Below are positions 28,356 to 52,602 of a stretch of DNA of 64,000 nt, piece by piece. The notes under the pieces are model-generated. The model ran no database searches, was not told the origin of the DNA, and was given only the letters and a program-made list of their open reading frames with translations. Origin of the DNA: a virus (taxonomy: Duplodnaviria > Caudoviricetes); IMG/VR virus record IMGVR_UViG_3300028887_000075, positions 64,001 to 128,000 of that record. The stretch is one strand, 5' to 3'. Numbering within the stretch: the stretch's first letter is position 1; each line of letters opens with the position of its first letter. Made by a program: the position numbers and the translations under genes.

Positions 28356-28502
28356 TGTCAACTCCCGTGTTTTTAGTTAATCTTCCGTAGTTTATCCCTG
28401 ATTGTTTCATTCTGTTTACAATATAGCGGCGAGAAAGATACCGCCCGATGCCGCTAGGCATCGGGGAACCCTTTAGGGCGGTATATGAGAGCCGCTTCCC
28501 TC

Positions 28503-28907
28503 CTATCCCTGGTTCCTAATGTACTCTACGATTGTCTTCTCGGAAACATCCCCTATTGTGGATGCAAAATACCCTCTGGTCCACAGGTGGTGCTGTCCGG
28601 ACCAGTAGTACTGGGTAAGGTAGTAATGGTACTTCTTCCACATCAGGTATGTCGACTGCTGTTTCAGTGCTTTGACGACGTTGTCGATTGATTCACATGG
28701 CCTGATACGGACCAGAAGGTGGACATGGTCCTGGTCGACCTCGGCAATCTCGACATGGAACCTACCGTTCTTTTCGGCAGCGTCGTCCATGGCAGCTAGA
28801 AGGTCATCCCGTATTGGGTTAAGTACCTTGCGGCGGTACTTGGTGGAGAAGATTAGGTGGTACCTCAGGAAGGTCTTTGCGTGTCCGAAACGTTCATACT
28901 TGCTCAT
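28503..28907 (-). CDS. tnpA: IS200-family Y1 (HUH) transposase
   Basis: YHLIFSTKYRRK, DHVHLL (HUH), LWTRGYFASTIG, YIRNQ catalytic Tyr. Confidence 0.95.
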   Translation of the reverse strand: MSKYERFGHAKTFLRYHLIFSTKYRRKVLNPIRDDLLAAMDDAAEKNGRFHVEIAEVDQDHVHLLVRIRPCESIDNVVKALKQQSTYLMWKKYHYYLTQYYWSGQHHLWTRGYFASTIGDVSEKTIVEYIRNQG

Positions 28908-28990
28908 GCAATAAAATATAGTTATTTTTTCGAAAAAAAGTCTTGCATTTTTAAGAAAAAATAACTAAATTATGTTATAAACTTAATGGT

Positions 28991-30268
28991 ATGAGCATGA
29001 CCGAAGAACAGCGACTTGCGAAGAACGCTTCAATCAGGGAAGCGATGAAGGCTACGCACGAGAAGCGCAAGTCGCAGGTCTGCCGTGTCTATATGCTGAA
29101 GGTACAGAAGAATGCCTTGTCAGCAAGACAGAAAGAAGACTTCAAGATGCTGTTCGTAGAAGCAAAGTGGCTGTACAACGACATCCTCAATTATGGTTCC
29201 GTTAAGGGGCAGTCCATCTTCGACTACGAGATTGGAAATACAGTAGAGGTTAAGCTTCCGGACGGGACATTCGACGGGCGAAGCCTGGACCATATCGGTT
29301 CGCAGATGAAGCAGTCCGTCTATGCCGACATCAAGGCTTCCATCAAGGCTTTGTCGAAGCTCAAGAAGAATGGATTCAAGGTAGGGAGGCTGAAGTTCAA
29401 GTCCGAAATCGGTGCAGTGTCCTTGAAGCAGTACGGAACGACCTACAAGTTCCATAACGACCACTTGGTAAAGATACAGAATATTCACGGTCTGGTACGA
29501 GTAAACGGTCTCGACCAGATTAAGGACAATGTAGAGTTCGCCAATGCGAAACTCCTCAACAGGGCTGACGGCTACTATCTGGCAGTCACGACCTATACAG
29601 AAAGAAAACCGTATTCCAACCGGCCTCACGCTGATGTCGGTATCGACATGGGTTGTCATACCTCCTTCACCTTTTCAACGGGCGAGGAGATAGACGTCAA
29701 GATTAAGGAACCGGAGCACCTGAAAAGACTGCAACGCAAGCAGAACAGACAGAAGAAGGGCTCCAATGGTCGAAGGCGAACAATCCACAAGATACGGAAA
29801 CAGCATCAGCGGCTGGTTAACCGAAAGAACGACAGGGCTAACAAGATTGTTGCCGACTTAAATAATAGGTTCAGCCTTATATACATCCAGGATGAAAACC
29901 TGTCCGGATGGCAGAAGGACGGACATGGCAAGGCGGTGCAGCACAGTTGCCTTGGACGTGTCAAGGCGAAACTGAAAGCGCAGGATAACGTCTATGTCGT
30001 TGACCGATGGGAACCCACCACGCAGAAGTGCATCAACTGTGGCAAGAAACATCCTATGCCACAGAACGAACGCACTTTCAGGTGTGATTGTGGAATGTGT
30101 ATGCCCAGGGACCTTCATTCGGCTAACCGCATGGTTCAGGAAGGTAGGAAACTAGTACCTCCGGAACGGAGGGAGTTCATGAGCGCTGACTGGTGGACCT
30201 CATATATCCTGCCCTGTCTCGGGCGGGACAAGTCCGCTGGGGTGACGCGCGAAGCTGCCACCCTTTAG
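28991..30268 (+). CDS. tnpB: RNA-guided endonuclease TnpB
   Basis: RuvC-I VGIDMG, RuvC-II region IQDENL, Zn finger TTQKCINCG...FRCDCG, RuvC-III RDLHSA. Confidence 0.92.
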   Translation: MSMTEEQRLAKNASIREAMKATHEKRKSQVCRVYMLKVQKNALSARQKEDFKMLFVEAKWLYNDILNYGSVKGQSIFDYEIGNTVEVKLPDGTFDGRSLDHIGSQMKQSVYADIKASIKALSKLKKNGFKVGRLKFKSEIGAVSLKQYGTTYKFHNDHLVKIQNIHGLVRVNGLDQIKDNVEFANAKLLNRADGYYLAVTTYTERKPYSNRPHADVGIDMGCHTSFTFSTGEEIDVKIKEPEHLKRLQRKQNRQKKGSNGRRRTIHKIRKQHQRLVNRKNDRANKIVADLNNRFSLIYIQDENLSGWQKDGHGKAVQHSCLGRVKAKLKAQDNVYVVDRWEPTTQKCINCGKKHPMPQNERTFRCDCGMCMPRDLHSANRMVQEGRKLVPPERREFMSADWWTSYILPCLGRDKSAGVTREAATL

Positions 30269-30284
30269 GGTGGCGGTAGTTCAC
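30155..30284 (+). ncRNA. TnpB omegaRNA (reRNA) scaffold; guide would be the flank AATATATATTTAAAAT...
   Basis: Overlaps the tnpB 3' end and right end; conserved with covariation in the copy at 52165-52294; 5' boundary is only the limit of homology. Confidence 0.7.
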
Positions 30285-43060: not shown

Positions 43061-43392
43061 GCAATCCCGAGTCCATAGACTGGAAGGAAGTCCGCCGGAG
43101 AATCGCGGAGACTCCCGTCATCGTCCCTCCCGGTCCCTCCCGGAAATCCCTGGAGAGGCGCCGTAGGAGAGACCGGGAGCGGTGGCGGAAGTACTACAAA
43201 GAGAACCCCGAGCACTGCCACGCCAGGCAGAAGGAATGGGAACTGGCGAACCCGGAGAAGGTGAAGGCCAAGAGGCAACGGTGCTACGAGAAAATGAAGC
43301 AGGACCCGGTACGCCTCGAGAGGAAGCGCCAGAGGAACCGGGAGTACAAGGCAAGGAAAAGACTTGAGAAACTGACCGCACAGGCGGCATAG
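43057..43392 (+). CDS. Highly basic hypothetical protein
   Basis: Arg/Lys-rich with NPE repeats; ATGA coupling. Confidence 0.6.
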   Translation: MSNPESIDWKEVRRRIAETPVIVPPGPSRKSLERRRRRDRERWRKYYKENPEHCHARQKEWELANPEKVKAKRQRCYEKMKQDPVRLERKRQRNREYKARKRLEKLTAQAA

Positions 43393-43399
43393 GAATACC

Positions 43400-43876
43400 A
43401 TGGCAAGGAAATACAAGAAATCCGTCTATTTCGGCATAGTGGCAGATTGCGACTGCAGGGCAGTTGCCATGTGCAACCTGTTCTACGAGCCTTCCGGAAA
43501 GCCCCGTGTAGGCCATCTGAAGGCCGACCGGTATCAGGAATTCGACTACGACAGGTTCATGCGGAAAGGATATGCCGAAACCTCCCACGGATACACGGTA
43601 TTGAAACGGGATGTCGACGTATTTGCCACTGCAGCGAAAGCGTTCGGAAATGACGGGTTCAACCGGTTCATCGCCTCGATAATCCGACTGAGCGCACTGG
43701 AAGACGCCCTGGATGCACCGGGAGTGGGTGACCGGATACTCTACTTGGCCAAGATGAGCCTACACAGGACAGGAGGAAAGTTGGCACACATGGAACTAAT
43801 GCATGACAGCATGCTCAGGCTGGACAAGTTCGTACTGGACCGGGGGTTCGCTGCTACCAAGGAGTCACCCAAATGA
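43400..43876 (+). CDS. Hypothetical protein
   Basis: AGGA RBS. Confidence 0.6.
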   Translation: MARKYKKSVYFGIVADCDCRAVAMCNLFYEPSGKPRVGHLKADRYQEFDYDRFMRKGYAETSHGYTVLKRDVDVFATAAKAFGNDGFNRFIASIIRLSALEDALDAPGVGDRILYLAKMSLHRTGGKLAHMELMHDSMLRLDKFVLDRGFAATKESPK

Positions 43877-49781: not shown

Positions 49782-50060
49782 ATGGCCACTCAGAAAAAGA
49801 CACCCAAAAAGACCCTGGACGACGCCATCAAGGCGCTATCCAAGGCAAAGACCAAGAAACAAATTTCGAAGTGCGCCGGTGAAGTCATAAAGCTGGCCGA
49901 GGAGAAGCCCGAACGGACGAGGACCAGCCCGAAGTATTCCCGCTTCATAAAGGCCACCCCCGACCTGAAGGGCAGGCTCGTCACCAGGTTCTACGTGGAC
50001 AGGACCCTCGACTTCTATGTCACCGATGTGAACTACCGCCGCCCTTTAGGGCGGCGGTAG
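49782..50060 (+). CDS. Hypothetical protein whose 3' end lies inside an IS-derived palindrome (possibly truncated)
   Basis: Last codons and stop are supplied by the 50028-50065 palindrome. Confidence 0.55.
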   Translation: MATQKKTPKKTLDDAIKALSKAKTKKQISKCAGEVIKLAEEKPERTRTSPKYSRFIKATPDLKGRLVTRFYVDRTLDFYVTDVNYRRPLGRR

Positions 50061-50067
50061 TTCACAT
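50026..50067. repeat. Perfect 42-nt palindrome made of two inverted IS605 right-end tips
   Basis: AT-GTGAACTACCGCCGCCCT-TT-AGGGCGGCGGTAGTTCAC-AT; right arm matches the element end at 30267-30284 with one mismatch. Confidence 0.85.
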
Positions 50068-51310: not shown

Positions 51311-51856
51311 CTATATCCGGCAGTAAGAGTTGACGAACTCCCTTATCGTATTTACCGTGGAGGAACCGTTGTCGAAATCGCAGCATATGCTTTCGTCCCC
51401 TTCTCCGGTGTACTTGACGTGCTTAACGCTCCATCCCGTAGGACCGTAAAGGTCATAACCCAAGGCGGACTCTGTGATTCTGAGCGATTCCTTAAGTACA
51501 TTCCTGTATTGCATGACGCCATAGTTCTCCTTGCAGAATATCTCTATGGTGGGCGAGCCTGCCGTGAAGGTCACCGAGAAAGAGTACGGGGTGCCGTCGG
51601 GAGTGCGCTCATCCCGGCGTATCCGGCAAATCTGCTCCATGAAGTTGTCCACCGCGATGGCTACCAGGGAATGCCTGGCATCGGCTTCGATAGCGGCGAT
51701 TGCCTCCAGCGAGTCCAGCCTCGTCCTGTACTCATGGATTGCCTTGTCCTTCACCTCGGAAAGCTGCTCCGGGCTGATAGGAGTGGGGTATACTTTCAGG
51801 TTGCCGTCGTCGAACTTGACCTCGAAACTTAGTCCTCCGTCTAGCGTTATCCTCAT
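51311..51856 (-). CDS. Hypothetical protein
   Basis: AAGGAG RBS; TTGCTATATTTG on the minus strand at 51888-51899. Confidence 0.65.
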   Translation of the reverse strand: MRITLDGGLSFEVKFDDGNLKVYPTPISPEQLSEVKDKAIHEYRTRLDSLEAIAAIEADARHSLVAIAVDNFMEQICRIRRDERTPDGTPYSFSVTFTAGSPTIEIFCKENYGVMQYRNVLKESLRITESALGYDLYGPTGWSVKHVKYTGEGDESICCDFDNGSSTVNTIREFVNSYCRI

Positions 51857-52030
51857 GTGGCGCTCCTTTGCTTATGCGCTATATGGGCAAATATAGCAAA
51901 TTCCGGCGGGGAGCACCGGGAGGCTTGCCTGCCGGTACCGGGTCAACCGGGAGGGCCCTAGGTGGTACGCGGGGTATACCGGGGGAGAGTACTGGTTCAT
52001 AGTGTACAATATTAGTAATCAATATTTTAC

Positions 52031-52294
52031 AATTATCGGCGGGAAAGATGCCACCCTTCAGGGTGGCATATGAGAGCCGACGAAAAAATAGAAAAAGAAC
52101 TTGCATTTTTGAAACTGTTAAACTATATTAGGAACTGTCAGGCCGAAGGACACTAAATATGCGGGTACCTCCGGAACGGAGGAAACTTATGATGGTGGAC
52201 TGGTGGACCTATATATCCAAACCTATTCTGGAACGGACAAGTTCGCTGGGTTGAAACCAGAAGCTGCCGCCCTTTAGGGCGGTCTGTAGTTCAC
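52031..52294 (+). mobile_element. Non-autonomous 264-nt IS605 derivative: left end + promoter + omegaRNA scaffold + right end, no ORF
   Basis: Follows TTAC (52027-52030); left end GAAAGATGCCACCCTTCAGGGTGGCATATGAGAGCCG; TTGCAT-17nt-TATATT; 130-nt block homologous to 30155-30284 ending TTCAC. Confidence 0.88.
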
Positions 52295-52302
52295 ATTGTT
52301 GA

Positions 52303-52602
52303 ATGGCTACTATGGAAACGCATCTTATCATGTTGCGGGATGCCTTCGATGCATCCCGGATTGCCGGAGTAAATGTCCGGGAATTAATTGACGCCGGTAT
52401 ACCTGTCGGTGACATGGATATCGGTTTCGCTACTTACTTCGACATATGTCCGGGCTGGGAGCCAGGTACCGCCTGGCCAGGAACCTCCATGGACGATGGT
52501 TATCCGCTTATTGGGATGATGGTGCATAGCTGTCCTGCCGGCTATAGCGTTTCACATTCGGTTTTCGACAAGTGGCATTTCTACCTCAGGACAAAGGTTT
52601 AA
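52303..52602 (+). CDS. Hypothetical protein
   Basis: ORF between the mini-element and uvsX. Confidence 0.5.
   Translation: MATMETHLIMLRDAFDASRIAGVNVRELIDAGIPVGDMDIGFATYFDICPGWEPGTAWPGTSMDDGYPLIGMMVHSCPAGYSVSHSVFDKWHFYLRTKV

Follow-up and report, generated by a model that had tools for sequence, protein, structure and literature searches.

The 264-base segment at positions 52031–52294 of a large cattle-rumen phage sequence is probably a PATE-like non-autonomous element of the IS200/IS605 type, carrying a putative stand-alone omegaRNA gene and likely using the resident TnpB and TnpA in trans. The window analysed here is the whole stretch of 64,000 nucleotides, corresponding to G000:64001–128000, where G000 denotes a 170.7-kb IMG/VR virus record that is ~41% complete. 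DNA near-identical to this record is contained in bovine gut metagenomes. The cassette and its flanks consist of the following features:

52027–52030, plus strand: TTAC target and transposon-adjacent motif, abutting the left end on its 5' side, read from the sequence
52031–52082, plus strand: left end, with a hairpin at 52048–52069 and a conserved 12-nt box at 52068–52079
52101–52129, plus strand: promoter-like TTGCAT-N17-TATATT, homologous to the promoter before tnpB
52130–52164, plus strand: leader linking −10 box and scaffold, with a remnant of the initial tnpB codons at ~52136–52152
52165–52294, plus strand: omegaRNA scaffold of 130 nt, terminating at the right-end cleavage site (...TCAC)
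52266–52283, plus strand: right-end hairpin with a perfect 7-bp stem and a TTTA loop, showing compensatory changes in the family
52295–52314, plus strand: guide-encoding flank, overlapping the start codon (52303) of a 99-aa gene

The TTAC, the left end and the TTGCAT-N17-TATATT box are located where the original prediction had placed them. Both cassette ends contain subterminal hairpins homologous to those at the ends of a complete family member, which is located 22 kb away in the same window:

28416–30284, plus strand: complete IS605-type element, the probable trans supplier for the cassette
28416–28419: TTAC target of the complete element, read from the sequence
28420 onward: left end of the complete element, read from the sequence
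28503–28907, minus strand: tnpA, intact Y1 transposase gene (Pfam Y1_Tnp, E = 1.6e-30)
28943–28971, plus strand: tnpB promoter TTGCAT-N17-TAAATT, a conserved box upstream of tnpB
28991–30268, plus strand: tnpB, full length (425 aa), with Pfam OrfB_IS605 and Cas12f1-like TNB domains and matches to TnpB structures in the PDB
30155–30284, plus strand: omegaRNA scaffold and right end of the complete element, closing in TCAC at 30284

The left end of the cassette matches that of the complete element at 24 of 27 bases, and its hairpin stem is the left-end stem of full copies of the 127-nt type. Compared to the resident element the stems are swapped, the left-end stem of the cassette being the right-end stem of the full element and vice versa. 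The left-end hairpin of the full element (28440–28475) features an additional nested small hairpin of ~22 nt, which is absent from the left ends of the cassette and of the other full copies examined. Positions 52037–52079 are covered at high depth by metagenome runs, and this left end is therefore common to many elements.

No transposase or other protein gene is present inside the cassette. It is devoid of tnpA, and the tnpB C-terminus is represented only by a frameshifted remnant of ~33 codons, to which the sole reading frame (31 codons) belongs; the predicted loss of tnpA and essentially all of tnpB was thus correct. The leader resembles positions 29000–29012 of the full element when compared by eye and is conserved among the cassette copies. 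Because its part at ~52136–52152 resembles the first tnpB codons, the deletion junction is placed just before 52165. From there on, the collinearity with 30155–30284 that had been noticed earlier was confirmed: 106 of the 128 aligned bases are identical (BLAST E = 4.7e-23) and the covariance model yielded 118.6 bits (E = 1e-25), a similarity far beyond chance. The right-end hairpin has a double role, as the last stem of the omegaRNA and as a TnpA-type DNA hairpin.

The complete element contains the only tnpA and the only tnpB of the whole 170-kb record. A same-family element with both genes is thus found in the same phage, and its TnpB shows a conserved D-E-D set. Judging from the sequence, the use of these two proteins by the cassette in trans is likely. 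The residues D219, E303 and D374 of TnpB and its zinc-finger cysteines are conserved among ~110 full-length homologues with identities down to 48%. In the HMMER alignment, a Gln of the resident TnpB falls opposite the RuvC-II Glu of solved TnpBs. The motif of this clade is a hydrophobic run followed by Q-D-E-[NQ]-L (residues 297–304), in which Gln, Asp and Glu are invariant in the ~110 homologues, and this suggests a register shift of the catalytic Glu by two residues. Since the homologues keep this motif together with the RuvC-I and RuvC-III Asp and the zinc-finger cysteines, E303, two residues past the Gln, is likely the catalytic RuvC-II residue, and the nuclease looks catalytically intact.

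These residues also bear on the idea that the cassette supplies a guide for TldR-like, RNA-directed repression, regulating a gene without cutting. The guide does cover the 5' end of a gene, and the Gln at the RuvC-II Glu position would fit a disabled nuclease, but the Glu two residues on, both Asp residues and the cysteines are conserved. The resident TnpB is also full length and is part of a mobile element with TnpA and both ends, and the guide match in its own genome is preceded by TCAC instead of TTAC. Neither loss of RuvC residues nor C-terminal truncation nor an immobile locus, the hallmarks of TldRs, was found for it, and repression of this kind is very improbable.

The RNA structure was analysed at the level of the family. 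A pattern built on the first hairpin yielded 28 metagenome loci and six viral loci, representing 27 distinct scaffolds. All of these terminate in TAGTTCAC and diverge immediately afterwards, where the guide is taken from the flank; the guide named in the original prediction is the sequence after this right end. For the alignment of the 27 scaffolds (A2), RNAalifold gave four helices, to which a fifth helix and two extra pairs were added by eye. In the resulting structure of five helices and 37 pairs, 91.8% of the cells are paired across the 27 rumen scaffolds, compared to at most 48.6% when the 3' partners were slid, and 15 pairs are changed on both sides, compared to at most five in the slid controls. 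The observed pairing values were reached by none of 500 shuffles, a control that overstates the significance because the scaffolds are related. MFE folds computed from single sequences disagree between cassette and full element and were left out of the evidence.

Two differences between the cassette and the full element had been named as compensatory, and both were confirmed. One is the replacement of an A-U by a G-C pair in the terminal hairpin, a covariation explained equally well by the need of TnpA for a DNA hairpin. The other difference concerns a four-pair helix (A2 columns 29–32 with 93–96), of which five fully complementary versions occur in the family, with two mismatches in the commonest subfamily. 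The preservation of structure holds in the alignment as a whole, as documented by the 15 compensatory pairs, although conservation at the end of the tnpB reading frame, which the scaffold overlaps in full copies, is partly protein-driven. The cassette retains all helices of the family except for three middle pairs of helix 4, which are paired in full elements and unpaired in all cassette copies. This loosening could indicate relaxed constraint.

The three distinct scaffold sequences of the cassette type share identities of 92–97%, while identity to the scaffold of the resident full element ranges from 76% (alignment columns) to 83% (local alignment). Within the cassette lineage, 11 columns vary: one compensatory pair and two wobble-preserving changes were observed, the remainder is unpaired, and no formed pair is broken. 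A full-length parent element with a scaffold of the cassette type was not found among the 28 metagenome and six viral loci. Based on the closeness of the cassette scaffolds to each other, their distance from the resident one and the lack of a full parent in this set, the protein-less lineage looks old and self-standing.

A search against all Rfam families at gathering thresholds gave no match in the window. When 185,579 species genomes were scanned with the family pattern, a single match was obtained in an actinomycete MAG; it is without the right end and the remaining scaffold and was taken as chance. All family members encountered in the scans made come from viral or metagenome contigs of the rumen.

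The promoter-like box is shared with the full elements. The relaxed form TTGCNT-N17-TANATT occurs twice in the window, in the cassette and before tnpB, with 0.03 matches expected by chance. It is kept before tnpB in every full copy examined and is also present in all four cassette copies. A sigma-70 consensus scan of 51800–52400 called no promoter, since TTGCAT fits TTGACA at just three of six positions; the support for the putative promoter is conservation and not consensus score. TTGCAT-N16-18-TAnAnT matches only three times across the 170-kb record and was therefore discarded as a general promoter class of the phage.

The protein-less layout was also observed elsewhere after TTAC, with at least four distinct left flanks and at least four distinct right flanks. 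One copy belongs to another viral record of 186 kb (L005, G001:19.9–20.2 kb), and contigs of run X5 feature the layout with other flanks. In the short metagenome contig L035, the left-end hairpin is deleted, while promoter and scaffold are intact. Every cassette copy is preceded by TTAC, as is the majority of the full copies; in the full copy L009, TGAC takes its place. Since the same layout follows TTAC at four or more other contig sites, comparison of these sites shows the cassette to be mobile as a unit. The prediction of a stand-alone guide gene was therefore refined: the absence of proteins, the promoter, the structure-preserving scaffold and the own guide stand, while the cassette is a copy of a mobile element and not a one-off local deletion. 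Its presence in independent assemblies rules out an assembly artefact. A CRISPR array was likewise rejected, as the genome features a single full scaffold and dispersed single copies at least 22 kb apart instead of tandem repeats with spacers.

A covariance-model search had been suggested as a means to find more cassettes. Model R1 of the family detected no further one in the G000 record, its extra matches being only a 59-nt stump and a hairpin-only palindrome. The stump (59–60 nt, G000:140537–140597, outside the window) reproduces the final portion of the full element's right end without a mismatch, terminus included, sits just past a small gene and is a plain decay product. The palindrome is the following feature:

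50028–50065, no strand assigned: perfect 38-nt palindrome, the right-end hairpin stem flanked by TAGTTCAC and its complement (nhmmer E = 0.08, model E ~1e-3)

It is located at or just past the end of a gene with no scaffold upstream, and represents a stump of the right end or else a terminator-like hairpin without relation to the element.

Solo scaffolds were found in two other phage genomes. In addition to its cassette, G001 features a second, diverged solo scaffold at G001:84719–84827; in this genome, judged to be 85% complete, neither a TnpA nor a TnpB with more than 37% identity was found. The complete 215-kb phage G002 (IMGVR_UViG_3300031998_000006) encodes one tnpA and nine tnpB of several subfamilies. 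This load of IS605-type elements is unusually heavy for a virus, and at least one solo omegaRNA scaffold is among them. It is located at 43319–43445 and is 85% identical to the TnpB-linked scaffold at 112969–113092, with whose element it shares the left-end hairpin; the −10-like box is kept. It arose by a different internal deletion than the cassette. On sequence comparison, the solo-scaffold layout has arisen at least twice, because the deletion in G002 is independent and has its own TnpB-linked relative. In all three solo elements, the 5' start lies at helix 1.

The same comparisons allow the cassette to be weighed as a passive mini-transposon or decaying relic, a unit that TnpA moves or once moved, in which promoter and scaffold are uneroded leftovers and no functional guide RNA is made. 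Decay products do occur in the same genome (the stump and the hairpin-only palindrome), every cassette copy has a loosened middle part of helix 4, and the copies diverge to a similar degree in scaffold (~8%) and non-scaffold sequence (roughly 10%, by eye). The copy in G001, which is without a close TnpB or TnpA, points in the same direction. In IS608-type elements, two hairpin ends suffice for movement, yet the whole 130-nt scaffold and the promoter are kept everywhere. Substitutions among the copies leave all formed pairs intact, with both sides of one pair changed, L035 has shed the left-end hairpin but neither promoter nor scaffold, and the unrelated deletion in another subfamily (G002) retained the same parts. 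A relic is an unlikely explanation, with an appreciable residual probability.

Sequences related to the insertion site provide information on the guide target. A bovine gut metatranscriptome library (X23) contains a 233-nt contig in which TTAC is joined directly to the sequence starting at 52295, the part upstream being different. By this comparison the contig represents the unoccupied site of a related rumen phage, which bears out the predicted TTAC-adjacent empty allele. Over the first 76 nt past the site, no difference to the window is listed, and going by the listing rules (the contig itself was not viewed) the guide match is apparently exact. In the comparison with 52295–52458, these 76 identical nt are followed by six differences in the next 58 nt and more beyond; the pattern could represent a conversion tract or merely a conserved gene start. 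No contig of this RNA run covers the cassette itself, although contigs cannot demonstrate absence of transcription. The exact empty-site pattern gave no match in IMG/VR. Five relatives found via the neighbouring 448-aa protein (L049–L053) encode a 99-aa protein with 33–40% identity; their upstream regions are too diverged for a comparison of the insertion site.

An unoccupied TTAC is also present in the own genome at G000:165006–165009, the site at which contig L025 has a cassette. The right flank of L025 is that of the window at 99% identity, and its left flank (L025:2506–2588) matches G000:164926–165009. The switch in homology falls exactly at the cassette, and the locus matching the left flank lies 49 kb away in G000. 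Such a junction may have arisen when two cassette copies recombined or when only one side was converted, or else the assembly may have bridged two loci through the repeat, giving a chimera.

The empty site also raises the possibility that the cassette was retained at this locus mainly as a promoter donor, its promoter reading out into the 99-aa gene and replacing a native promoter split by the insertion. The gene starts 8 nt past the right end, the TTAC of the empty-site contig sits within a promoter-like TTGCTT-N17-TACATT (in a loose end of 30 letters), and in the relative L049 a TTGCAT-N17-TATATT is located just upstream of the homologous gene. Furthermore, the right-end hairpin is without a T-rich terminator after it. 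The promoter is kept, however, in copies at unrelated sites, which makes it a property of the element and not of the locus. We consider promoter donation improbable as the explanation of the cassette, and it is compatible with a role as guide RNA.

Under the preferred reading, a PATE-like element with a stand-alone guide gene, an internal deletion would have removed tnpA and nearly all of tnpB, leaving both ends, the tnpB promoter and the full scaffold in place. The retained promoter would transcribe the scaffold together with ~16–20 nt of the right flank, and the RNA would load onto the TnpB of the complete element 22 kb away, their scaffold compatibility being assumed given the identity of 76–83%. 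The complex would then cut loci reading TTAC plus a guide match, either the site left after excision by TnpA or the cassette-free same site in a co-infecting relative, and recombinational repair from a cassette-bearing genome would restore or copy the cassette. The cassette-bearing allele would be spared because its guide match follows TCAC instead of TTAC. The TnpA of the complete element would move the cassette to further TTAC sites. Transcription, loading onto TnpB, cleavage of the empty site, restoration or copying and protection of the occupied allele are inferred from the biology of IS200/IS605 elements and TnpB (PMC10055086; PMC13565253).

The arrangement can be compared to several known systems. 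IS608 of Helicobacter pylori inserts 3' of TTAC without target duplication, has subterminal hairpins and divergent tnpA and tnpB genes, and its right-end cleavage site is one base off the target. The phage family has this layout in common, with TTAC, hairpins at both ends, divergent tnpA and tnpB, and TCAC versus TTAC, but is unrelated to IS608 in nucleotide sequence, and its TnpB clade features the Q-D-E-[NQ]-L RuvC motif II. PATEs often encode omegaRNAs to be used in trans by the TnpB of other elements (Meers et al. 2023, PMC10055086). Those of Geobacillus stearothermophilus (PMC10055086) resemble the cassette in being protein-less, in having both ends and a right-end omegaRNA and in relying on TnpA and TnpB from other copies. 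In contrast to them, the cassette is found in large rumen phage genomes instead of a bacterial chromosome, keeps the tnpB promoter as a dedicated upstream promoter, and has a nearest TnpB-linked scaffold that is only ~80% identical.

Stand-alone omegaRNAs of OMEGA systems (Altae-Tran et al. 2021), as far as they are covered in the later account of Altae-Tran et al. [quoted passage not shown] Within the scope of that account, they share with the cassette the absence of effector and transposase, and the genome of the cassette contains a same-family TnpB that may be a compatible effector; the setting of the cassette is viral, and its function in trans is a prediction. The VIPR solo vrRNAs of phages and satellites (bioRxiv 10.64898/2026.10.15.759431) are an analogy only: these viral guide RNAs are protein-less, with the protein encoded elsewhere, and take part in conflicts between mobile elements, but involve another protein family and recognition code, silence instead of cutting, and lack the context of transposon ends. 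A review (PMC13565253) treats the homing of elements into co-infecting phages under the term 'non-restorative homing'. For free-standing homing endonucleases of T-even phages and 'transposon non-restorative homing' (PMC13565253), the proposed outcome is the same, i.e. an element-free allele in a co-infecting relative is cut and the element copied by repair, whereas in the case of the cassette an RNA would guide recognition, and the nuclease is encoded at a site unlinked to the copied element.

The concept itself is already published, both for omegaRNA-bearing PATEs (PMC10055086) and for the trans use of stand-alone omegaRNAs (PMC10691335), as is the idea of one nuclease with several guides for OMEGA (PMC10691335, PMC10055086). 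For this reason, the cassette does not reveal a new mechanism. Its noteworthy particulars are the dedicated promoter that was kept, the natural empty target allele and the heavy load of IS605-type elements in rumen phages.

A role of the cassette in competition between phages would go one step further. In its strongest form, solo scaffolds would be working weapons or drives in phage-phage conflict, with one nuclease, several dispersed and independently mobile guides, and the cutting and conversion of cassette-free alleles in co-infecting relatives along with flanking phage genes; we regard this as rather unlikely. The L025 contig fits such a conflict, and an assembly chimera explains it equally well. 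If true, this arrangement would represent a naturally occurring intermediate step from transposon guide RNAs to multi-guide immunity.

Taken together, the cassette may be regarded as a natural minimal omegaRNA, for which the helix 1 start shared by three independent solo elements marks the 5' limit that was kept. The IS605 family to which it belongs is carried by phages and is abundant in the virome of the cattle rumen, with nine tnpB in one complete phage. With a natural allele of TTAC plus guide match in a relative, RNA-guided homing between co-infecting phages becomes testable with defined parts.
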